A DNA stretch of 64,000 bases, from the NCBI GenBank assembly GCA_965217045.1, contig CBDCHF010000007.1:211825-275824 (forward strand), written 5' to 3'. How positions within the stretch are numbered: the first letter of the stretch is position 1; each line of letters opens with the position of its first letter. The translations under genes were made by a program, and so were the position numbers. The DNA comes from Vicinamibacterales bacterium (lineage in GTDB: Bacteria; Acidobacteriota; Vicinamibacteria; Vicinamibacterales; UBA8438). The notes below the pieces were generated by a model, which was not told where the DNA came from, did no database searches, and saw only the letters and a list, made by a program, of their open reading frames with translations. Below, piece after piece: positions 1 to 10,214 of this stretch.

Positions 1-1270
1 ACTAGTGTCCCACAGTCTCAGGCCCAAGCGAGCGCGAGTTGCGGACGGGCGCGGTCTGGTGGCGAATGGGTCGTGAAGAGGTCTTCGAGAGGCCGGCGTT
101 CGAAGACGTTGAGTTGAAGCACCTGCAGCATCTGGTTGAGGCTCCAGCACAACCGCAGGACGAACTTGAGGTAGGCCAGCAGCAGGTACATGCAGGTGGC
201 CACCCACAGTTGCGTCAAGACCGCGTTCTTCGACCGGCCCACGAAACGTTTCACTTTCAGATGCTGTTTGATCCACTTGAAGAACAGCTCGATCTGCCAC
301 CGGGACTTGTACAGGTCGGCGATCGTCTTGGCGACCCACGTGGTGTTGTTGGTCACGAACACGTAGCGATTTGTTGTCAGCTGGTCGCGGTAGACGACCC
401 GTCGCAGCCGGTGGGGATAGACCTTGCGGCTGCGGGCGCTGGTCAGTTCGATCGTCTGGTCGCTGAGAATACCGGTCCCGGCTCGGACGTCATGCTCGTG
501 GGTGACCCGGTACCGCACGCCGCGCTTGAGGCGTGTCACGAAGGTGACGCCACGGGCCTGCAACTGGTGAAACCACGCGAAATCGAGATAGGCGCGGTCG
601 GCGACGACCACGCTGCCGGCCTCGAACGTCCACGTGCGGGCCACGGTCACGTCGCCGGTCTTGCCATCGGTGACGCTGACGAAACTCGGCAGGTGGCCGG
701 CTTGGTCCAACCCGACGTGCAGCTTGATCGCGGCCTTCGTGCGGCGGAACGACGCCCACGGGAAAACCGCCAGACACAAGTCGATGGTCGACGCATCGAC
801 CGCATACAGCTTGTGCCTGAAGCGGAAACCGTGGCCCGGCGCCCGTTGCTGGCAACGACTCAGCAGACGGCCGAACAACGCTTCGTAGAGCGTGTAGGGC
901 TGCTCGGCGTTGACCCGCGCGAGCGACGAGCGGCTGACCGTCCCAACGCCCAGGTGATAGAGCTTGGCGGGTTGCGCGCGCAGATTGCTCACGATGTCGC
1001 GCAGGCTCTGCCGGCTGGCCAACTGGCCCAGCCCGAGGGCGACGAACTGCGCCCAGCGGCTCATGACGCGCAAACGCTGCCCGCGCTGATGGCCGCGCGC
1101 CTCGGCGTCGAATTCATGTCGCGGAAGCAACGTCAGAAGTTGCCCGAAGACTGTGTTACGATGGGCCACGGCTTGGATCTCCTGTGTTTTGAATGATTTG
1201 TGGCAAAACCATTCTAACAGACATAGAAGGTTCAAGCCGCCTCAATTAGAAGCTCTGTGGGACAGCAGTG
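1..1270 (-). mobile_element. IS4-family insertion sequence (left end at or just before window start)
   Basis: Terminal IRs (c)ACTAGTGTCCCACAG at 1-15 and CTGTGGGACAGCAGTG at 1255-1270; encloses a DDE transposase. Confidence 0.9.
18..1169 (-). CDS. IS4-family transposase (DUF4372 N-terminus + DDE_Tnp_1)
   Basis: Motifs DASTIDL, KLHVGLD, VADRAY, Y-K-S-RWQIELFFK (YREK); probable GTG start at 1169. Confidence 0.9.
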   Translation of the reverse strand: MAHRNTVFGQLLTLLPRHEFDAEARGHQRGQRLRVMSRWAQFVALGLGQLASRQSLRDIVSNLRAQPAKLYHLGVGTVSRSSLARVNAEQPYTLYEALFGRLLSRCQQRAPGHGFRFRHKLYAVDASTIDLCLAVFPWASFRRTKAAIKLHVGLDQAGHLPSFVSVTDGKTGDVTVARTWTFEAGSVVVADRAYLDFAWFHQLQARGVTFVTRLKRGVRYRVTHEHDVRAGTGILSDQTIELTSARSRKVYPHRLRRVVYRDQLTTNRYVFVTNNTTWVAKTIADLYKSRWQIELFFKWIKQHLKVKRFVGRSKNAVLTQLWVATCMYLLLAYLKFVLRLCWSLNQMLQVLQLNVFERRPLEDLFTTHSPPDRARPQLALAWA

Positions 1271-1503
1271 ACCTGAGAAGCAACTCACCAAAGGACCGAG
1301 GGATCTACGTCATCCTCACCCAGGACGGACTGGTGGTGAAGCGCGCCGTGCTCGACCAGAAAGCCGGCTGGCTCATCATGAGTGACAACCCGGACAAGAA
1401 CAGATTCCCCACACAGCCGTGGGGGGACGACGCGAAGATCATGGGCGAGGTGAAGTGGCACGGGCAGTCGATCAAGGTAACCGCCGTGGTCACGCGAGCG
1501 TGA
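1271..1503 (+). pseudogene. C-terminal S24 peptidase domain of a CI/LexA-like repressor, 5' part removed at the IS4 end
   Basis: GIYVI...LVVKR...MSDNPD...IMGEVKW matches the S24 C-terminus; begins at the IS4 IR. Confidence 0.65.
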
Positions 1504-1519
1504 CCGCGGGCCGTCTCTG

Positions 1520-1650
1520 ACCAACTCCTTCATCATGTCCCCAGCGACCCCGTCAGGGTGAGGTCGCCGGCGCGGGCATCCGGCCGACGTCAACGCACAG
1601 CACGTCGCCGCCGTCCACCCGAGCGCGACGGCGACGCCCGGCAAGCGCAT
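1520..1650 (-). pseudogene. Short Lon protease (S16) C-domain remnant, paralogous to ~2718-2855
   Basis: MRLPGVAVALG...GDMMKE; DNA similar to 2718-2855 (ACTCCTTCATCATGTC, CCAGCGACCCCGTCAGGGTGAGG shared). Confidence 0.6.
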
Positions 1651-1688
1651 GTCGCCGCCCCGGCGTAGGAAAAAACACCGGAGAGACG

Positions 1689-2120
1689 ATGGCAGGAAAA
1701 ACGGCGGCCGAGCGACTGCACGCGCTCTACGTCGACGAGCTGCACCAGTCGCTGCTGCCGCCGGTAGGGCCGATGGTGAACCGGCGGCGGACCGAAGCAC
1801 TGATCCAGCGGGCGCGCACGATCGGCCCGGCGGCGTGCACCGAACCCGACGCGACGACCTGAATCTGGTCGGACCTGCACTTGGGCCACGAGCACTCGCG
1901 CAGCGTCTGCGGAAGACCGTTCCCGACGGCTGCCGCGGCCGACGAGGCGATGATGGAGACCTGGTACAAAGAGGTGGCCGAGGGAGAGACCATCATCTGC
2001 TTGCGCGACGTCACCGTCGACGGCGAAGCCCCGGCACACCACCAGGAATGGTGGCGGCAGGCACTAGGCGCAAAGTGGCTCGTGCTCGGCAATCACGACG
2101 TCGACCCGGTCAACCGCGAG
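1689..2120 (+). pseudogene. Calcineurin-like metallophosphoesterase with premature stop
   Basis: In-frame IWSDLHLGH, ICLRDV (degenerate GD) and VLGNHD motifs; TGA at 1860-1862; truncated after GNHD. Confidence 0.75.
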
Positions 2121-2332
2121 CACCACCGCGCCGCCTCCCGCGGGCACGGTCACCATGTCGTAGACCCGCCACCGGCCGCCCCCATCGGAACGCGCCAGTC
2201 CCGCTGCGAGGCGGGCCGCCTCGGCGACACCGTCGCAGTGGTGGAGCTGCCAGCGGCGCCGGCTCGAACCGATCGGGCGTCGGCCGAGAGCGAAGACGGA
2301 CTTCTCCACGATGTCCCGTCGTTTCCGAACGG

Positions 2333-2905
2333 CTAGAGCCGCACCCGCGCGGGCTCAGGCAGGCGGTCGCCCGCCGCCGGGAGCAGGACCAGATCCAGCA
2401 CGTCGTCGACCCGACGCACGTAGTGCACCGTGACCCGGCGCCGGACGTCGTCACCGACGTCCGTTCGAAGTGCTTCTCGTTCTGCCGAGGCAGCACGGCG
2501 CGGGTCAACCCGCGCCGACACGCACCCACCACCTTCTCCTTGACGCCGGTGAACGACGACACCAGCGCGGCCACCAGCGCCACCCCGGCCGAGGCCCCGT
2601 CCTTGGTCTCCGCGGCCGACTGCGCGTGAACGTGCAGATCGGTCTCACGGAAGACCGCCGCGTCCGGGCCGTACCGCCCGGCGTTGGCCCGGACCCAGGA
2701 CACCGCCGCCCTGACCGACTCCTTCATCATGTCGCCCAGCGACCCCGTCAGGGTGAGGCCGCCGGCGCCGGGCATCCGGCCGACCTCGATGAACAGCACG
2801 TCGCCGCCGTACGGCGTCCGCCCCAGCACGACGGCGACGCCAGGCAGCCGCACGCGATCGGCAACGTCGGCTTCGACGAACGTCGGTGCGCCGAGCGTCT
2901 CGGCG
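2333..2905 (-). pseudogene. Lon protease C-terminal (S16) domain remnant
   Basis: GGDVLFIEV, LTLTGSLGDMMKES, DLHVH, KDGASAG (catalytic Ser), KEKV; internal deletion and frameshift, no ATPase domain. Confidence 0.8.
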
Positions 2906-3049
2906 ACGTCTCGGGCATCACGACGGCCTTCGACTCGTCTCCCTCGGTGCGGCGGCGCGCCACCTCCCGGCACAACATGTCGAGCGCAGACAGCAGAGTC
3001 GACAGCCCCGGTGTCCCAGGCGTAGCCGCGGACCGAAGGACCTGACGGT

Positions 3050-3981
3050 GTGGGGCCAAGGCGGCTGGAGACGCGGCGAGATGGCGCTGTCCGAGTCTCT
3101 GGAACGCACGGAGGGGACGGAGCAGGCCGGGGTGTACCGGGCCGGGAGCGGGCTGTCGATGCTGGCGGCAGGCGTCCGGGGCGGGCTGCCGGGGTGGGCG
3201 GCTTCGCTCTGGCGGTCAAGTCCGACGCGTTCCTGGTGCGGACGGTGTCGGACGCGGTCGTGTCGAGGGGCGCGGGCAACCTCGCGGCTGCCGAGGCGGG
3301 GGTGAGCCGGGTGCGGGCGGCGCTGGAGGGCTCGCGCGAGCTGCGCTTCGCGGGTGGCCGGTCGGTCACGCCGTCGGTCGAGCTGGAAGTGCGTCAGGAC
3401 GGGCGCGACACGGAGACCGGGGCGGGGCCGGACACGGGCTTCGGGGTGGTCTTTGCCGACCCGAACCTCGGGCTGATGGTGGACGCGGCGCTCAGCCTGC
3501 TGGTGGTGCACTAGGACAGCTGCTACGAGGAGTGGGGCTTCACGGGCTTGACAGTGCGCTTCGACCCTGGCCTGTCGGGCCGGGGCTGTCGCTGACGATG
3601 ACGCCGTCGTTCGGCTTGGCGTCGCAGGAGGCGGACCGGCTGTGGGCGATGCAGGACCTAGGCGGCCTGGTTCCGCACGGTGCGCTGCCGTTCGATATGG
3701 GCGGGCAGTTGGCGGCGGGCGTCGGCTACGGGATGGCCGGTCCGGGCGGTCGGGGCACGGGGACGCCGCATGCGGGCCTGACGCAATCGGGCGTGGGCTA
3801 CCGGGCGCTGCGCTACGGGTGGCGGTGGACGGTGGACCAACGGTTCAACGTGGGAGTCGAGGCGGCGCGACCGGACGGCCTCGGCAACGCGTTCGGCCAC
3901 CTCGGTAACGGCGCGACGGGCTTCGGCCGCACGGGCGAGCCGGCGCACTCGGTGCAGGTGCGCGCCGGCGTGACGTTCTGA
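3050..3981 (+). pseudogene. Autotransporter-type beta-barrel C-terminal remnant
   Basis: VSRVRAALEGS, TPSVELEVRQDGRDTETGAG, C-terminal VRAGVTF with terminal Phe; stop at 3512-3514 plus frameshift. Confidence 0.65.
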
Positions 3982-4057
3982 GAACGGCGAGGACCAGCGT
4001 CCCAACCGACCGGCACAGCACCGCCCGCACGGGACGATCGGCGACGCTCGGAGCGCA

Positions 4058-4087
4058 TTGACTCTGGAACGAGGGAGGGCCTACACT
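4058..4087 (+). promoter_or_regulatory. Sigma70-type promoter upstream of the NYN leader RNA
   Basis: TTGACT (4058-4063), 18-bp spacer, TACACT (4082-4087). Confidence 0.65.
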
Positions 4088-4093
4088 GGTCTT

Positions 4094-4170
4094 CTGTTAC
4101 GTCCCCCCGGTGGCATTCCCGCCGGGCGTTATAACCCCAGGGAGCCGGAAACGGCTCCCTGTTTTTTTTT
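4094..4170 (+). ncRNA. Putative ~75-nt structured leader/antitoxin-like RNA
   Basis: Lies between promoter and terminator; hairpin CCCGGTGG/CCGCCGGG (4106-4126) enclosed by GTTA/TAAC, then terminator hairpin. Confidence 0.45.
4138..4170 (+). terminator. Intrinsic terminator directly upstream of the NYN start codon
   Basis: Perfect 10-bp stem CAGGGAGCCG-GAAA-CGGCTCCCTG followed by T9; ATG is 9 nt further on. Confidence 0.85.
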
Positions 4171-4179
4171 GAGGCGGCC

Positions 4180-4785
4180 ATGCGCGTGCGAATCCTCGTG
4201 GATTTCTGGAATCTGCAGCTCGCCTGGAACAGCTTCCACGAGGGGCAGGGCAACGGGCGCCCGCGGATACCGTGGGAGGCCAGATTGCCGGATGTCCTCA
4301 CACGTCAAACGGATGCCGAAGCGATCTACACCGGCTGTCACGTCTACGCGTCAGTCGCGCCGCGCAACCAGGCGGACGCCGGACTCCGCCGCTTCCTCCA
4401 CGCGATGAACGGTTTTCCTGGCTATCGCGTGACCGTCAAGGAGCGAAAACCGCGCGGACCCTACACGTGCCAGCACCCCGATTGCCGCCGACCGTTGGTG
4501 ACGTGCCCGCATTGTCGACGGGCGCTGCAGGGCACGGTCGAGAAAGGCGTGGATACGGCGCTCGCCACGGACCTGATTCAAGGGGCACTCGATGACCTGT
4601 TCGACGCTGCGGTCCTCATCAGCGCCGACGCGGACTTCGTACCCGCGGTGGAACTGGTCCAGAATCGCACCGGCAAGCGGGTGATTCACGCGCACATCCG
4701 GCCGCAAGGGCAGGAACTGCGGAACGCCTGTTGGGCGCATATGTTCGTTGACGATCTGATGGGCGAACTGCTGAACACGACGTGA
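4180..4785 (+). CDS. NYN (LabA/DUF88, PIN-fold) ribonuclease with Zn-ribbon insert
   Basis: ILVDFWN, EKGVDTALATD, ISADADFVP motifs; insert CQHPDC...CPHC. Confidence 0.88.
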   Translation: MRVRILVDFWNLQLAWNSFHEGQGNGRPRIPWEARLPDVLTRQTDAEAIYTGCHVYASVAPRNQADAGLRRFLHAMNGFPGYRVTVKERKPRGPYTCQHPDCRRPLVTCPHCRRALQGTVEKGVDTALATDLIQGALDDLFDAAVLISADADFVPAVELVQNRTGKRVIHAHIRPQGQELRNACWAHMFVDDLMGELLNTT

Positions 4786-4869
4786 GGTGCACCGCCGGGC
4801 CGCGCCAAGCCACGGCCGCAGGCGACAGGACACGGACCGGAGACCAGCAGTACCAGAACGACGGATACG

Positions 4870-4995
4870 GCCGCTGACCGAAACTGACGCCAAGTGGTCA
4901 GCGCACACGAAACCCTCGACACGGCTGTAGTTGCTGCACACGGCCGGCCAGCAGACATCCCCGACGAGGATGCTCTGCCCGAGCTACTCCCACCG
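4870..4995 (+). pseudogene. Extreme C-terminal remnant of an MmeI/YeeA-like type IIL RM enzyme
   Basis: AHETLDTAVVAAHGRPADIPDEDALPELL resembles the AH..LD.AV..AYGW..D...L..LL tail of this family. Confidence 0.5.
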
Positions 4996-5215
4996 ACACG
5001 AGCCGAGCTGGCCGAAAGGGCTTGGGCCCAGAGACGCCTCATCCGTGAGCGGCCATTTTGCCGCTCTGGCAGATCAGTGATCCGAACCCCTCGACTTCAG
5101 CGAGTACACACGCAGGGGACTGGGAGAGCCCGGAAGGCTCCGAATCCCGTGCCACCCGCACGCAGCGGCTGAACGAATTTTCTCGCGGCGGGTCTCGTAC
5201 AAGAAACGCAGGTTC

Positions 5216-6685
5216 CTACGAGGGTCGGCTCGCGTCCGGTTGGAGTGCTTGCTCGAGGCGGGCTGCGTCCGCGACACCGAGGCGAACCAGTTCAGGAAGA
5301 AGCCGATCAACCTGGCTTCGCAAGGACTGACCCGACGTGAGCAGTGTCGGTTCCGTTTGGCGCACCGCATCGATGATCGCGCACACACGGCGCCCGATCC
5401 CGTGTCCAGTCCAGAAATCAGGCAAGTCGGGGAAAGCCGCCAGCCAGCCGGAGGCGGCCGCGAGCAGAAACGAAAGGTGGGCGGGTCGCGGCGCGACCTC
5501 AAGCAAGTTCAGGGTGACGATGGCGACGAAATGCGTCGCGCCTTCGACCGCGCATCGCTCAAGGGCCGGCAAGAACGGTGTCAGCCGCTCGATCAGCGCT
5601 GGCGGGAGGTAAGCCTTGGGCGGCTGCATCCAACCGTAGTCGTTCAAGAACAGCGTCGCGATCGCGGGTCCCAGATGCATCTCCACCCCCGACGACCGCC
5701 GCCTGACCATCCAGCGCCAGCTGTTGCTGGCGCGGACCCGCTCGGCAAGGCGCGCGCGGATGCGAACCGCGGTTGCCGTGTCCAGCCTATGATCGTTGAA
5801 GTGGACGACATCGACCGATCGCTGGAAACGCGTCAGGGCATCGAGGAACGATTCGTCGGGAAGCGATGCCAGAGGCTCCAGCGCGCGGCGATCGATTGCG
5901 GCATCGTCGGCTCCCGCAAGGTCGTGCGCAAGTAGGTCAAGGTACACATCGTTCCATTGATGCGGCTGATACGACAGATCTTCGGACGAATCCAGCCCCG
6001 CGCCGTTCGCCGCCCACGTCCAGTTGGCGCAGGCCCGAAGAGCTGCGGGTAGCCATGCGCGATCGCGTACAGCGTCCGCTCCGCGCAGCCAGACGCCAGC
6101 CGCCTGAGAGTCGAATCTGTCGATTTGGGCGTCGCGATCCGGCGCGTCGGCCGCGCGCCGGTCATGCCGACGGCCCGGAAGCCGGATGCTCCTTCTCGTT
6201 CGTAGACGAACACCAGGGAGGGCGGGCCACGGCGGCTCCGCGCCCCCGTCGTACAGCCAAGCCAGTTCTGCTTCTATGGCGGCATCCACGGCGCGGCGAT
6301 GTTGTTGCACCCGTGCCGCCCGATCTTCGTCGCGCTCGTCCCAGTGACGCGTGGCATGGATCGATGCGCGGAACGCGCAGCGCACAATCGCCCGCGGCAG
6401 CCGGTCATTTGCAGCCCGCACGGCAGACGCCGCTGCAGTGAACCCGTGGGCGGCGGCTGGCCGGCGGACGAGCGCCAGAAGCGCCGCAGCTTCCTCACGC
6501 GCGGCGCCGTCCGCCATCGCATAGGCGATGCCGGCGAACGCGATCGCGGTCGGATTGAATCTCAGGCCCTCGCGCGAACGCGTGACCGGGTTGTCCTCGC
6601 CCTGGGCGGCGGCGCTGAACACGCCCATCGCCCAGGCGCGATAGCGCGTCCGTTGTTCGCCCGTGAGGTCGCGCATCGCAATCAT
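5216..6685 (-). pseudogene. C-terminal ~490 aa of a large helical protein (possibly a STAND/NACHT-type defence ATPase), 5' part lost
   Basis: Long open frame with protein-like composition ending at 5216; joined directly to the IS4 fragment; family assignment tentative. Confidence 0.5.
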
Positions 6686-7142
6686 CTTGAAGAACAGCTC
6701 GATCTGCCACCGGGACTTGTACAGGTCGGCGATCGTCTTGGCGACCCACGTGGTGTTGTTGGTCACGAACACGTAGCGATTTGTTGTCAGCTGGTCGCGG
6801 TAGACGACCCGTCGCAGCCGGTGGGGATAGACCTTGCGGCTGCGGGCGCTGGTCAGTTCGATCGTCTGGTCGCTGAGAATACCGGTCCCGGCTCGGACGT
6901 CATGCTCGTGGGTGACCCGGTACCGCACGCCGCGCTTGAGGCGTGTCACGAAGGTGACGCCACGGGCCTGCAACTGGTGAAACCACGCGAAATCGAGATA
7001 GGCGCGGTCGGCGACGACCACGCTGCCGGCCTCGAACGTCCACGTGCGGGCCACGGTCACGTCGCCGGTCTTGCCATCGGTGACGCTGACGAAACTCGGC
7101 AGGTGGCCGGCTTGGTCCAACCCGACGTGCAGCTTGATCGCG

Positions 7143-8915
7143 GCGGGTTCCGGGGCAGGTGTCAAAGTTTTGACTTGTACAAATTTCGGAACTGTGGCAT
7201 AACCTTGGCGTGAAGGTCGGGGACCGCAATTCGCACGAGAACCTGCAGGCCGAGGTCGAACGGCTCCGCACGGAGTTGACGCGGCGCGAGCGCGACACCA
7301 AGAACCAGCAACGCGAGAACGGTCGCCAGCAGCGTCAGATCGACGGCCTGCAAGGCCAGATCGAGCGTCAGAAGCGGGAGATCGAGCAACTGAGGGGGCA
7401 GTTGGCCGCCGCGCGCCGGGCGGGGTTCCGACAAGCCGCCCCCTTCGCCAAGGACCGACCGCAAGGACGCGGCCGGCGTCCCGGTCGACGGGCTGGTACG
7501 CAGTATGGTCGGAAGGCGTGCCGCCCGCGCCCGGCACGGGTTGACCAGACCCTGGAAGCGCCGGTGCCGACGGCGTGTCCCGACTGCGGCGGGTCGGTCG
7601 AAGTGACCCACGTGGCGTCGCAGTATCAGGAAGAAATCCCCGAAGTGCGCCCGGTCGTGCGCCGCTTCGACATCGAAGTGGGCCGCTGCTCACAGTGTCG
7701 GCGGCGCGTGCAGGGCCGCCACGCGCTGCAGACCTCGGATGCGCTGGGAGCGGCCGGCGCGCAGCTCGGCCCCGGCGTCGTCGCGCTGGTCGTCGAGTTG
7801 CACACGGAGATGGGCGTACCGCTGGCGAAGGTCGCCCATGTGCTGCGGACCACGTTCGGCTTACACGTGACACCGGGCGGCCTCGCCCACCTGCTGCACC
7901 GCACGGCCCGCGACGCCGCGCCGACCTACACGGCGCTGTGCGAGCAGGTCCGCAACTCGCCCACGGTCACACCGGATGAAACCGGGTGGCGCGTCGGTGC
8001 CATCAGCCACTGGCTGTGGGCCTTCGTCACCCCGGAGACGACGGTCTACGCCATTTGCCCCGGCCGCGGGTTCGACGATGCCACCACGGTTCTGGGGGCC
8101 GACTTCGCCGGGGTGCTCGTGCGCGACGGGTGGGTGTCGTATCGCTGCTACCGAGCCGCGCTGCACCAATCCTGTCTGAATCACCTGCTCCGACGATGCA
8201 AGGAACTGCAGGAAGATCATCCGGACAGTCTCTGGGCCGGGCAGGTGCAAGCGGTCTTGCAGACGGGCCTTGCCGTGCGTGACCGCTGCACCGCCGGCGA
8301 GCTGAGCGAGCACGGTCTGGCATCGATCCGCGGCCGACTCGTAGCCCGGCTCGGTCGGCTCATTGACGCACCGCCACCGCTGGACGACGCCGAGCGCTTT
8401 GCCCGGCATCTGGCCACCGAATTCGCTGCCGTGTTTCTCTTCTTGTGGGACCTGTCGATCGACGCCACCAACTGGCGCGCCGAACAGGCCATCCGTCCCG
8501 CCGTCGTTATCCGAAAGGTCTGCGGTGGCAACCGCACCCGCCACGGCGCCGACACCCAGCAGGTGCTCGCCAGCGTCGTGCGCACCGCCCGCCAACGCGA
8601 CCTCGATCTACCTCCGCTGATCGCCACGATGTTGCGCGCCACCGGTCCCGTCGTCCCCGACGCCTTCGGGCTCCCCCCGCCGCCCGCCTGAGGGTGGGCG
8701 AGCATCGCTCCCTCGCGAGACGTGAAGATCGGCAACCCCGAGACGGTCGCTTCAACTGCGACCGACCCAGGCAGGTATCGTCACGCGCAGGGGTGAAGCA
8801 CCAATAGAACCGATGCAGCTCACAGCTCCGTTGCCGTTCGGAACTTCAAGAGTCCCCAACCCATTTCTGCTATTTATGCCCGTATTTGTTGAGGAATCAC
8901 CCGCTAAACGAATAC
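7143..8915 (+). mobile_element. IS66-family element (single-ORF, ISBst12-like), left IR clipped
   Basis: Right end CACCCGCTAAACGAATAC at 8898-8915; only GCGGGT of the matching left IR survives at 7143. Confidence 0.75.
7210..8691 (+). CDS. IS66-family transposase
   Basis: Coiled coil, CPDCG/CSQC zinc finger, DETGW, VRDGW, HQSCLNHLLR, TNWRAEQAIRP. Confidence 0.92.
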   Translation: MKVGDRNSHENLQAEVERLRTELTRRERDTKNQQRENGRQQRQIDGLQGQIERQKREIEQLRGQLAAARRAGFRQAAPFAKDRPQGRGRRPGRRAGTQYGRKACRPRPARVDQTLEAPVPTACPDCGGSVEVTHVASQYQEEIPEVRPVVRRFDIEVGRCSQCRRRVQGRHALQTSDALGAAGAQLGPGVVALVVELHTEMGVPLAKVAHVLRTTFGLHVTPGGLAHLLHRTARDAAPTYTALCEQVRNSPTVTPDETGWRVGAISHWLWAFVTPETTVYAICPGRGFDDATTVLGADFAGVLVRDGWVSYRCYRAALHQSCLNHLLRRCKELQEDHPDSLWAGQVQAVLQTGLAVRDRCTAGELSEHGLASIRGRLVARLGRLIDAPPPLDDAERFARHLATEFAAVFLFLWDLSIDATNWRAEQAIRPAVVIRKVCGGNRTRHGADTQQVLASVVRTARQRDLDLPPLIATMLRATGPVVPDAFGLPPPPA

Positions 8916-9794: not shown

Positions 9795-9913
9795 GGGGCT
9801 GCGCCCCGAACCCCCGGCGTCCGCTTGCGGGGACCCCTTCGCCCCGCGCCGCTCCCGCCGAGGCGCGCTGTGCGCGCCATGCGGAGTCTGCACCGTTCTA
9901 CGGCGCAGACTCC
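9795..9913. repeat. Cluster of GC-rich palindromes (REP-like)
   Basis: GGGGC-TGC-GCCCC, GCGGGG...CCCCGC, GGCGCGC-TGT-GCGCGCC and GGAGTCTGCACCGT-TCT-ACGGCGCAGACTCC hairpins. Confidence 0.45.
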
Positions 9914-9916
9914 TAG

Positions 9917-10074
9917 CAGCCCGTGGTGAAACCCCGCGTCGCACCGAGACGGGCGAGGCGCCCGGCTGACAAGGCGTGACGAGGGAGCATATTGGCCATA
10001 TTCGACCGAGGAACAACGCGGTCAGACGGGATGCATCGCCCATCGAATGCAGCGGGGCCTTTTGCCACGGGCTG
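9917..10074. mobile_element. 158-bp IS1182-type MITE
   Basis: IRs CAGCCCGTGGTGAAA / TTTTGCCACGGGCTG, flanked by CTAG on both sides; ends resemble the IS1182 at 32380-33870. Confidence 0.8.
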
Positions 10075-10214
10075 CTAGCGAGGCTTCGCCTCAGACCACC
10101 GAGCATGTGAATCGGGCGTGATCGCTGCCTCCCATTGAGAAGTGAGATAGCGAAGAAAAAAACGATCAAAACCTGAACTTGACTCAACTGTGAAGATCCC
10201 GGCCGTTCAAGGAA

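Follow-up and report, generated by a model that had tools for sequence, protein, structure and literature searches.

The window analysed here is a stretch of 64,000 nt from a Vicinamibacterales bacterium (assembly GCA_965217045.1, contig CBDCHF010000007.1, positions 211,825-275,824), and all coordinates given below are positions in this window. Between 4058 and 4785, a promoter, a small structured RNA and an intrinsic terminator precede a gene encoding an NYN-domain nuclease, within decayed surroundings. The features of the locus are as follows:

18-1235, minus strand: IS4-type transposase, in the decayed, IS-rich surroundings
2110-3369, minus strand: open reading frame containing a Lon_C fragment, in the decayed surroundings
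4058-4087, plus strand: sigma-70-like promoter of the small RNA (TTGACT-N18-TACACT; -35 at 4058-4063, -10 at 4082-4087)
4097-4105, plus strand: box 1, a single-stranded 9-nt motif (UUAnAnYCC, from column counts) directly abutting hairpin 1
4106-4126, plus strand: hairpin 1, with an 8-bp stem and a 5-nt loop in the MFE fold
4129-4137, plus strand: box 2, with the same consensus as box 1 (UUAnAnYCC, from column counts)
4138-4170, plus strand: hairpin 2 and T9, intrinsic terminator and 3' end of the small RNA (10-bp stem with GAAA loop at 4138-4161, T9 at 4162-4170; terminator scan)
4171-4174, plus strand: Shine-Dalgarno-like GAGG, 5 nt 5' of the ATG (sequence inspection)
4180-4785, plus strand: NYN-domain nuclease gene, 201 aa (Pfam NYN), with a four-Cys zinc-ribbon-like insert at codons 97-112 (bases 4468-4515)
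5216-7873, minus strand: open reading frame disrupted by an IS, in the decayed surroundings
7210-8691: IS66 transposase, in the surroundings

A preliminary description of this DNA had placed the nuclease gene among pseudogenes, and the decayed, IS-rich neighbourhood bears this out, with IS elements and dispersed repeats being abundant across the window. Positions 1-6686, and with them the RNA and the NYN gene, occur a second time at 99.9% identity on another contig, in the opposite strand (C1:877793-884478).

Promoter, terminator and probable read-through

The small RNA has its own promoter and its own terminator. The TTGACT-N18-TACACT promoter proposed earlier was recovered at 4058-4087 as the sole sigma-70-like site within 3000-6000, where shuffled sequences gave a mean of 0.1, and the pattern TTGACN-N16-18-TNNNNT occurred in 43 of 72 distinct regions upstream of homologous loci, versus 14 of 1106 background windows. 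The RNA core follows the -10 element after 6-9 nt in two-unit loci and after 36-41 nt in three-unit loci, and transcription of the small RNA probably starts near 4094. The GNRA-capped terminator with T9, which had been called perfect, is likewise present, its T-run stopping 9 nt before the ATG (4180).

Since the interval from the T-run to the start codon is too short for another promoter, the NYN mRNA of the window would have to arise by read-through. In this context, two RNA-library studies yielded assembled contigs that span the terminator into the coding sequence, one (record 3 of X18) covering 4123-4173 followed by the start region of a variant and the other (record 6 of X20) covering 4142-4491 of a relative with 27 differences; these bridging contigs are a weak hint of read-through, being of depth 3-5, with strand and ends not resolvable and DNA carry-over possible. 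No RNA-library contig lay over 4058-4122 and no transcript starts or ends were recovered from these libraries, in which short RNAs are unlikely to be captured, so that the absent cover says nothing about the small transcript.

Structure and conservation of the small RNA

The roughly 75-nt transcript with a hairpin that had been anticipated corresponds to a predicted RNA at 4095-4170 with two hairpins, which ends in a hairpin followed by T9. Folding of 4090-4172 gave two hairpins at -39 kcal/mol (z = -4.81), a result equalled by none of 200 shuffles. Two tandem units make up the RNA, both with a conserved 9-nt box that directly abuts a hairpin, and some relatives carry three such units. Among 75 distinct model matches, the conserved U, U and A of box 1 are present in 62, 70 and 72 sequences, and its two C residues in 74 and 73 of 74 lettered rows; the corresponding counts for box 2 (n = 75) are 67, 72 and 73, and 74 and 72. 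Helix 1 of the model displays compensatory changes in all seven of its pairs (92.4% of cells paired) and helix 2 in all nine (97.8%); moreover, the fifth pair of helix 2 is G-C in 74/75 sequences, and the four positions 3' of its stem are T in 67-71 of 75. The loops are either short stable tetraloops or variable in length, and the RNA holds no variable single-stranded segment of a guide-like kind.

The leader had also been described as lacking tandem repeats, which is correct for the sequence itself (Tandem Repeats Finder reported none in the leader) and incorrect at the level of motifs, where the box-hairpin units recur. A scan for a third unit flagged 34 of 83 upstream regions, of which about 20 were judged real by inspection, with a conserved first hairpin; the other flagged candidates were weak hairpins overlapping the promoter and were rejected.

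Covariation among homologues, which the preliminary description had put forward as a check on the leader, was positive, and the leader is kept among homologues ranging from 93% to about 32% protein identity. With RNAalifold, 40 sequences supported 16 pairs, and compensatory changes were seen in 15. In this alignment 91.4% of cells pair, a percentage inflated by selection because the seed was picked by a script that requires hairpins, versus 54.8% after shuffling and at most 50.4% in slid controls; its covariation score was 0.853 versus 0.224 for shuffled alignments, and none of 500 shuffles reached it. In the larger set of 75 distinct matches, whose alignment is fitted to the covariance model, 95.4% of cells pair and all 16 modelled pairs carry compensatory changes. 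Folded singly, all 75 sequences formed two or more hairpins, with z < -2 in every case (median -4.84). These data establish the existence of the RNA and its structure. Searches of Rfam 15 returned chance-level PreQ1 and SAH matches only for positions 3500-5500 of the window (E <= 10) and, for 12 homologous loci (E <= 1), only tRNA and a chance-level miRNA match, both elsewhere in those loci.

Linkage to the nuclease gene and distribution

The RNA is obligately linked to the NYN subfamily that bears the four-Cys insert, for which metagenomes offer at least 409 loci. Covariance model R1 matched 81 of 87 homologue-bearing sources (372,741 bases), once in each and always beside the NYN gene; in the 6.45-Mb genome to which the window belongs it matched just the two NYN copies, and in 150 other genomes of the same order it matched nothing at E <= 0.1. 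A search of that same genome with the leader DNA found the second copy only, the remaining matches being at chance level; a single box-hairpin unit carries too little information for a search of a genome of this size. In a sample of the phylum, the sole strong RNA match (genome G338, 6.1e-13) stops 9 nt short of the single close NYN homologue. Ten further genomes of this sample, with RNA matches at E 0.0014-0.093, were set aside as chance because about 15 matches are expected at that threshold over 150 genomes, and none of the ten matches the NYN profile at E <= 1e-15. Among such weak matches, one (L108) is a possible exception that is motif-like and lies 90 nt from a contig end. Beside a distant homologue (G334, E 1.7e-33), no RNA was detectable within 3.5 kb.

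The order promoter, units, terminator and gene is kept on the same strand in 75 of the 81 loci, with a conserved T-rich tail and a gap of 2-118 nt (median 37) between the end of the match and the start codon. In the other six the RNA is either convergent (L043, L045, L046) or divergent (L080-L082) to the gene, and it is also divergent on two of five small proteobacterial plasmids, from Aeromonas and Cobetia (L103, L106). The convergent and divergent variants that were inspected carry a promoter-like site of their own for the RNA. Accordingly, the earlier view of the RNA as a cis-encoded leader holds for the 75 loci where it lies 5' of the gene on the same strand and fails for these convergent and divergent arrangements, where the RNA cannot belong to the leader of the NYN mRNA. 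As far as sequence can tell, the convergent and divergent loci speak for an RNA that would serve the protein in trans rather than for self-attenuation through cleavage of a leader.

The module is mobile. The gene occurs sporadically (3/201 genomes of the order, and none of four genomes of the same genus), full-length homologues are carried by five plasmids of 6.3-12.4 kb, and the module was found in Acidobacteriota, Nitrospirota, Gemmatimonadota and Pseudomonadota. Across 32 loci no protein neighbour was conserved, and the recurrent neighbours were genes for integrases, transposases, HsdM, ResIII, DNA methylase, AbiV and PIN proteins, while some loci lie in housekeeping surroundings (NusA-RimP, an H+-PPase gene, an Nramp gene). 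An IS1-like gene adjoins the module in 17/86 loci; the reading that the module travels as a passenger of this IS was not borne out, no convincing terminal inverted repeats being seen around the IS1-like gene, RNA and NYN gene in five loci. No homologues were found in viral contigs and phage genomes. A sporadic and mobile gene, often near integrase, restriction and defence genes and present on plasmids, would fit a role in addiction or defence.

The NYN protein

The nuclease had been presented as intact and equipped with a zinc ribbon, and both points stand: PF01936 matches at 5.9e-11 (43.5 bits, cutoff 24.2) and the four-Cys insert is present. At E <= 1, Pfam reported NYN, Rhodanese_C and FeoA only, with no match of the ToxN type. 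Residues D8, D125, D150 and D152, as well as C97, C102, C109 and C112, are invariant in 51 aligned homologues. The AlphaFold2 model reached a mean pLDDT of 93.4, and its best matches among solved folds were 2qip (E 3.7e-10), followed by the MARF1 NYN domains 5yaa and 6fdl. The invariant catalytic aspartates and the NYN fold suggest that the nuclease is probably catalytically competent.

Structure prediction also supports a homodimer of the NYN protein, formed through the Cys-rich insert. The predicted pair scored an ipSAE of 0.45, versus 0.00 for the best of three controls, on a scale where 20 of 30 proteins with a solved pair structure pass the dimer mark, as does 1 of 23 solved as single chains; contact agreement across runs was at least 93% and partner pLDDT at least 89. 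A dimeric protein would agree with the presence of two invariant units in the RNA.

Interpretation of the module

The explanation that we place ahead of the others, with a confidence slightly short of even, is that the locus encodes an RNA-protein pair resembling type III toxin-antitoxin systems, with an NYN protein as the toxin. A strong promoter would drive a ~75-nt RNA that ends at its own intrinsic terminator and comprises two box-hairpin units here and three in some relatives. Its partner would be a metal-dependent NYN (PIN-like) ribonuclease of ~200 aa with a zinc-ribbon-like insert, probably a dimer. As the nuclease in the window would be made only by terminator read-through, the RNA should greatly exceed the protein. 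Each box-hairpin unit would be bound by the NYN protein, perhaps by a single protomer, and the protein may cleave the RNA within the boxes; the bound RNA would silence the nuclease in the manner of type III antitoxins. Once the RNA is no longer made, through loss of the plasmid or element or through shut-off by a phage, the nuclease would be released and would degrade cellular or phage RNA. RNA binding and cleavage by the NYN protein, its toxicity and the biological role of the pair are what we infer. One point against this type III-like reading comes from the convergent and divergent variants, which have no read-through logic to set the ratio of RNA to protein. The differing nuclease fold, the missing repeat array, the lack of homologues in viral contigs and phage genomes, the housekeeping setting of some loci, the G334 homologue with no detectable RNA within 3.5 kb and the negative phage tests of HEC-09 (see below) also weigh against it.

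Two other explanations accept the RNA and its partner and dispense with the toxin. The RNA might serve autoregulation as a leader or attenuator, its terminator limiting expression of the nuclease gene while the NYN protein binds or cuts the boxes of its own leader, with no toxin-antitoxin logic; its position on the same strand directly 5' of the start codon in 75/81 loci and the lack of room for a second promoter in the window speak for it. We consider it unlikely, although it deserves to be taken seriously, given that the RNA is convergent or divergent in 6/81 loci and on 2/5 plasmids, that no alternative antiterminator pairing was seen (by inspection only), and that the precisely placed, consensus-like promoter together with the terminator marks a separate transcription unit. 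A non-toxic ribonucleoprotein, in which the NYN dimer would carry the RNA as a stable cofactor, as a scaffold or as a decoy substrate and the particle would have a specific function in RNA processing, defence or maintenance of the element without release of a toxin, is improbable in our judgement. The linkage of RNA and gene whatever their orientation, the conserved boxes and invariant G-C pair of hairpin 2, which suggest sequence-specific recognition, the modelled dimer and the housekeeping surroundings of some loci would all agree with it; yet the RNA offers no variable single-stranded segment usable as a guide, and a sporadic, mobile distribution that includes small plasmids fits a selfish or defensive module more readily than a core role.

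Coincidental adjacency, in which the hairpins would be the ordinary terminator of an upstream gene or a mobile palindromic element, draws some plausibility from a window full of IS elements and dispersed repeats. Nevertheless, it is contradicted by the 81/87 linked loci, by a genome with just two motif copies, both beside an NYN gene, and by the 0/150 other genomes of the order; furthermore, the motif is kept beside homologues across phyla and plasmids despite changing flanks, and the RNA has its own promoter, so that we regard this explanation as scarcely credible.

If the type III-like reading is extended to its full form, the module would represent a new class of toxin-antitoxin or abortive-infection system, horizontally spread, with a dimeric NYN-fold RNase as toxin and a box-hairpin RNA antitoxin docking one protomer per unit, a proposal that we make tentatively from sequence patterns and to which we assign clearly less than even probability. 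To our knowledge, toxin-binding RNA antitoxins are known for one toxin fold only. If true, RNA antitoxins would extend to the PIN-like superfamily, with a new protein-binding RNA motif, and a second, unrelated nuclease fold in the same gene layout would imply that this solution evolved more than once. Since LabA-like NYN proteins are widespread and of obscure function, a conserved RNA partner would provide their first testable ligand. The RNA motif, absent from Rfam 15 and strongly backed by covariation, can be tested as a ~75-nt RNA and a 200-aa protein, and should the module prove to stabilise small plasmids or to block phages, it would be a compact two-part addition to the defence and addiction repertoire. 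Our literature search found no description of an NYN nuclease paired with a small RNA, including NYN with type III toxin-antitoxin systems or RNA antitoxins. The terms NYN, DUF88, LabA and PF01936 are absent from the main texts of PMC5737381 and PMC2864571, whose supplementary motif lists could still hold the motif.

Comparison with known systems

In type III toxin-antitoxin systems (ToxIN, CptIN, TenpIN), a promoter and an RNA of tandem units of ~30-40 nt are followed by an intrinsic terminator and by an endoribonuclease gene expressed by read-through, and the known antitoxins are arrays of near-identical repeats. The module described here shares the order of promoter, RNA, terminator and RNase gene, with an intrinsic terminator present, and it is likewise small, mobile and plasmid-borne without a protein partner. 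It differs in that its nuclease has the NYN (PIN-like) fold and not the ToxN/AbiQ type, according to Pfam and the fold search; in that there are only two or three units, which have the 9-nt box alone in common and differ in their stems, with no repeat array by Tandem Repeats Finder; and in that the RNA gene may be convergent or divergent to the nuclease gene.

Ribonucleases are also known to regulate their own synthesis, as through the E. coli rne and rnc leaders or by Regnase-1 acting on its own mRNA. Here too a conserved stem-loop RNA precedes a nuclease gene and may be recognised by the nuclease itself; unlike in those cases, the RNA ends at a terminator of its own and may be encoded on the opposite strand or 3' of the gene. 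RNAs of the CsrB/RsmZ type sequester a protein by means of repeated short binding motifs, and the repeated short motifs beside hairpins in our RNA could similarly titrate a dimeric protein, although the motif is 5' of the stems rather than in loops and the partner, a nuclease, has its gene beside that of the RNA.

With regard to the protein, the comparators are LabA-like NYN proteins (PF01936), among them VPA0982 of Vibrio parahaemolyticus (2qip) and the NYN domain of MARF1, with which the fold and the catalytic aspartates are common. In contrast to these, the subfamily studied here carries the four-Cys zinc-ribbon-like insert, placed after the third strand and ahead of the EKGVD helix, and its neighbouring small RNA is obligate. 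We know of no LabA-like NYN protein that acts as a toxin.

The nearest relative by domain that has been tested for defence, as far as the available text of its source goes, is HEC-09 (PADLOC PDLC04163), an NYN and zinc-ribbon candidate defence gene within Hma systems, for which that text gives no protection against the phages tried (10.1101/2024.01.29.577857). Like the protein of the window, HEC-09 is a small NYN protein (~200 aa) that includes a zinc-ribbon element, and it occurs in defence islands. The portion of the source available to us places the zinc-related part of HEC-09 N-terminally and mentions no RNA partner for it, unlike the module described here (10.1101/2024.01.29.577857). The protein of the window matches the HEC-09 profile at E 7.3e-14, a partial match over positions 89-172 of 203 (the C-terminal half), and nine of its relatives match at 5.7e-13 to 1.5e-6, eight of them over a partial range of about 75-165 of 203.

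Organization of the module in the window

The preliminary description had proposed a candidate type III-like RNA-antitoxin system, with a promoter, a structured small RNA and a GNRA-capped terminator preceding an NYN RNase, and all elements of this layout were found in the window sequence. TTGACT-N18-TACACT is the sole sigma-70-like site within 3 kb (shuffles gave 0.1), the fold of 4090-4172 comprises two hairpins (-39 kcal/mol, z = -4.81), and the ATG of the 201-codon ORF lies nine bases past the T-run. The decayed surroundings reported with it were likewise borne out, with IS transposases, a Lon fragment and an IS-interrupted ORF around the gene; the 419-codon ORF at 2110-3369 holds only part of the Lon C-terminal domain and is therefore considered a gene remnant.

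Features of the module and its surroundings (window positions)
18-1235 (-): IS4-type transposase (DDE_Tnp_1 and DUF4372; Pfam)
2110-3369 (-): ORF with partial Lon protease C-terminal domain (Pfam, profile positions 4-126 of 205)
3532-3981 (+): 149-codon ORF, 5' of the promoter, no Pfam match
4058-4087 (+): sigma-70-like promoter, TTGACT-N18-TACACT (promoter scan)
4138-4161 (+): terminator hairpin of 10 bp with GAAA cap, then T9 (sequence and terminator scan)
4180-4785 (+): NYN domain ORF (PF01936 at 5.9e-11, above cutoff; Pfam)
5216-7873 (-): ORF broken by an IS piece
7210-8691: IS66 transposase

A new structured RNA conserved among homologues

At an E-value of 0.001 or below, 147 of 345 candidate proteins matched the NYN protein, the named matches among them belonging to Acidobacteriota, Bryobacterales, Gemmatimonadaceae, Nitrospirota and Ignavibacteria. 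Three close loci were taken from genome records, and a metagenome scan gave 409 stretches encoding a relative, of which the best 80 were kept. When the 270 bases 5' of the start codon were aligned for the three closest loci, the two promoter hexamers, the pair of hairpins and the T-run proved conserved, and sequence farther upstream did not. The 160 bases 5' of every start codon were further parsed by script for boxes and hairpins, revealing a common plan of two or three tandem units, each a 9-nt single-stranded box immediately abutting a hairpin, with the final hairpin leading into a T-rich tail. By inspection, about 20 loci carry a third, upstream unit with a well-conserved first hairpin (the script flagged 34/83). 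Consequently, the earlier remark that the leader has no tandem repeats does not hold at the motif level.

The seed alignment comprised 40 distinct two-unit sequences, a biased selection, since the script demanded box and hairpin twice. RNAalifold recovered two helices of 16 pairs, with compensatory changes in 15; pairing reached 91.4% of cells against 54.8% in shuffled alignments, in a selection biased towards hairpins, and fell to 34-50% when the 3' partners were slid one to three columns. The covariation score was 0.853 versus 0.224 (0/500 shuffles as high). Among 75 distinct matches of R1, the covariance model of the two-unit core, 95.4% of cells were paired and all 16 pairs showed compensatory changes, in an alignment fitted to the model and leaning its way. 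Single folding, which is model-free, gave z < -2 for 75/75 sequences (median -4.84), with at least two hairpin loops each.

Column counts in the same 75 sequences showed an identical consensus box, U-U-A-n-A-n-Y-C-C, 5' of both hairpins (UUA in 62-73 sequences, CC in 72-74), a G-C fifth pair of hairpin 2 in 74, T at the four positions 3' of hairpin 2 in 67-71, and loops without conserved sequence. One locus, L023, has an NYN frame broken into two ORFs (349-624 and 679-930, within 349-930) and a mismatch in hairpin 2 of its RNA (259-339); the module there may be decaying as a whole.

Rfam 15 held no family matching the RNA, either for the window region or for homologous loci. We regard it as secure that this is a structured small RNA new relative to Rfam 15, with a promoter and terminator of its own.

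Specificity of the RNA-gene link

Conservation of the leader, on which the initial proposal depended, was found together with covariation: R1, run on both strands of 87 sources (372,741 bases), matched 81 of them exactly once each, at E-values from 5e-16 to 0.005. The six misses were L017, a partial match confined to a middle section of the protein (37% identity); L018 and L019, homologues at 36-38%; L028, with only 118 bases upstream; and the family members L093 and L098. With speed filters off in ten sources, L017 not included, matches appeared in L093 (7.9e-5), L018 (6.6e-4), L098 (0.013) and L019 (0.13), and none in L028.

In the window's own genome R1 matched two copies only, each adjoining an NYN gene, and at E <= 0.1 it matched nothing in 150 further genomes from that genome's order. 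A phylum sample of 150 genomes yielded one strong match (6.1e-13), ending 9 nt 5' of the sole close NYN homologue. Ten more genomes, without an NYN gene, matched at E 0.0014-0.093; roughly that number is expected by chance at the threshold, and they are treated as chance matches. A possible exception is L108, whose motif-like two-unit RNA (1501-1573, 29.3 bits) is 90 nt away from a contig end; no NYN gene was found in that genome, and the contig may stop short of it. No RNA was matched within 3.5 kb of a more distant homologue (1.7e-33), which sets a limit to the association in the wider family.

Full-length homologues with merely 32-38% identity were also located on five small proteobacterial plasmids (6.3-12.4 kb) of Novacetimonas, Pararoseomonas, Aeromonas, Paracoccus and Cobetia. 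Their RNAs lie upstream on the same strand on two (2.3e-7, 0.0084) and are divergent on two (7.9e-5, 0.003), the fifth giving a weak match (E 1.3). Chance adjacency of RNA and gene is ruled out; the RNA is strictly paired with one NYN nuclease subfamily across several phyla and plasmids.

Orientation and promoters

The RNA lies directly upstream on the gene's strand in 75/81 loci, with 2-118 nt (median 37) between match end and start codon in same-strand loci. In L043, L045 and L046 it closely follows the gene on the opposite strand (convergent), and in L080-L082 it is upstream on the other strand, divergent. Two inverted variants were inspected, and both have a TTGAC-type promoter before the first box and a T-rich tail past the last hairpin. 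Overall, TTGACN-N16-18-TNNNNT occurred within 100 nt 5' of the two-unit core in 43/72 distinct regions, compared with 14/1106 background windows of the same loci. The -10 ends 6-9 nt before the core where a locus has two units and 36-41 nt before it where there are three, so transcription should start right at the first box.

On the divergent Aeromonas (L103, 2903-3001) and Cobetia (L106, 635-732) plasmids, the -35 region of the RNA promoter overlaps the NYN start codon; by inspection, this means that the NYN mRNA leader would cross the RNA gene in antisense, possibly adding a further layer of control.

The NYN protein

The AlphaFold2 model of the protein (mean pLDDT 93.4) found its best solved structural matches in the LabA-like protein 2qip (E 3.7e-10) and the NYN domains of MARF1. 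Cys 97, 102, 109 and 112 and Asp 8, 125, 150 and 152 are invariant in 51 aligned homologues. Folding two copies gave an ipSAE of 0.45 against 0.00 for the best of three controls, with contact agreement of at least 93% across runs and partner pLDDT of at least 89; 20/30 proteins solved as pairs and 1/23 solved as single chains reached the pass mark. This model supports a dimer, with a predicted interface formed by the Cys-rich insert and helices adjoining the active site, which would fit the two RNA units present in every case.

The PADLOC HEC-09 profile matched the C-terminal half of the protein (7.3e-14, profile positions 89-172 of 203), and nine relatives, over a similar partial range in 8/9. 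The preprint defining HEC-09 describes it as an NYN protein whose N-terminal part is zinc-related; it is found embedded within Hma defence systems and reportedly gave no protection against any phage tested (10.1101/2024.01.29.577857). The two are relatives at the domain level, but the families differ.

Neighborhood and mobility

No conserved protein partner was found by Pfam among 134 flanking ORFs of 32 loci. Recurrent neighbors were phage-type integrases, IS1-like and IS1595 transposases, HsdM with a Schlafen/AlbA_2 protein, ResIII, DNA methylase, AbiV-type HEPN, PIN and HTH-P63C proteins; housekeeping genes were also present. All-against-all ORF clustering recovered one recurrent neighbor, a divergent IS1-like protein in 17/86 loci, and no convincing inverted repeats enclosing its gene and the module were found in five loci. 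The NYN gene is sporadic by protein search (3/201 genomes of the order, this one counted; 0/4 of the same genus), and viral contigs and phage records held no homologue.

At L034 (330-2297), L046 (404-2371) and L082 (356-2295), an HTH/P63C-domain protein and the divergent IS1-like protein adjoin the RNA-NYN pair. In L046, where the RNA is convergent, P63C and NYN appear to be co-transcribed. At L029 (3761-4629), the module is closely followed by genes for a phage-type integrase and a tRNA, like an integrated-island edge.

Interpretation

The module was compared with ToxIN, CptIN and TenpIN, with the rne and rnc leaders, and with Regnase-1 and CsrB. From its layout, tandem units, mobility and intact active site, a type III-like toxin-antitoxin or abortive-infection module is the best single reading, which we hold tentatively, at slightly under even chances. 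Two defining features of the known type III families, their toxin fold and their near-identical repeats, are missing here; the module may therefore work like type III without being a member.

An autoregulatory leader would account for most loci, where the RNA immediately precedes the gene, but leaves the inverted loci unexplained, and we regard it as rather unlikely. Linkage in three orientations argues that RNA and protein act together in trans and that the RNA is more than a mere attenuator. A non-toxic RNP of RNA and NYN protein is unlikelier still. We found no description in the literature of an RNA partner for NYN proteins, and term look-up in the body text of two large surveys of RNA motifs found none either.

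Expression

Expression data were assembled contigs of public runs only, uninformative on the short RNA. Four metatranscriptome runs from three studies gave contigs at depth 3-5 over parts of the NYN gene, and two contigs, one a variant and one a relative with 27 differences, extend from the terminator hairpin or T-run into coding sequence. They hint weakly at terminator read-through into the gene, DNA carry-over being another possible source of the contigs.

Repeats and duplication around the window module

The window's genome is unusually IS-ridden. The IS4-type element (1-1271, with a 459-bp piece at 6686-7144) has more than 50 near-identical copies across 12 contigs, and the IS66-family element (7143-8915) several dozen genome copies, of which some carry about 2 kb of inserted sequence at 8518. 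A dispersed repeat of about 166 bp (about 9913-10078) has at least 40 copies at 85-99% identity on many contigs and looks like a MITE or IS end. Window 1-6686, with the RNA and NYN gene inside, has a second copy of 99.9% identity on another contig of the same genome (C1, 877793-884478, opposite strand) with IS copies at its bounds; a composite transposon or a recent duplication mediated by IS elements could account for it.
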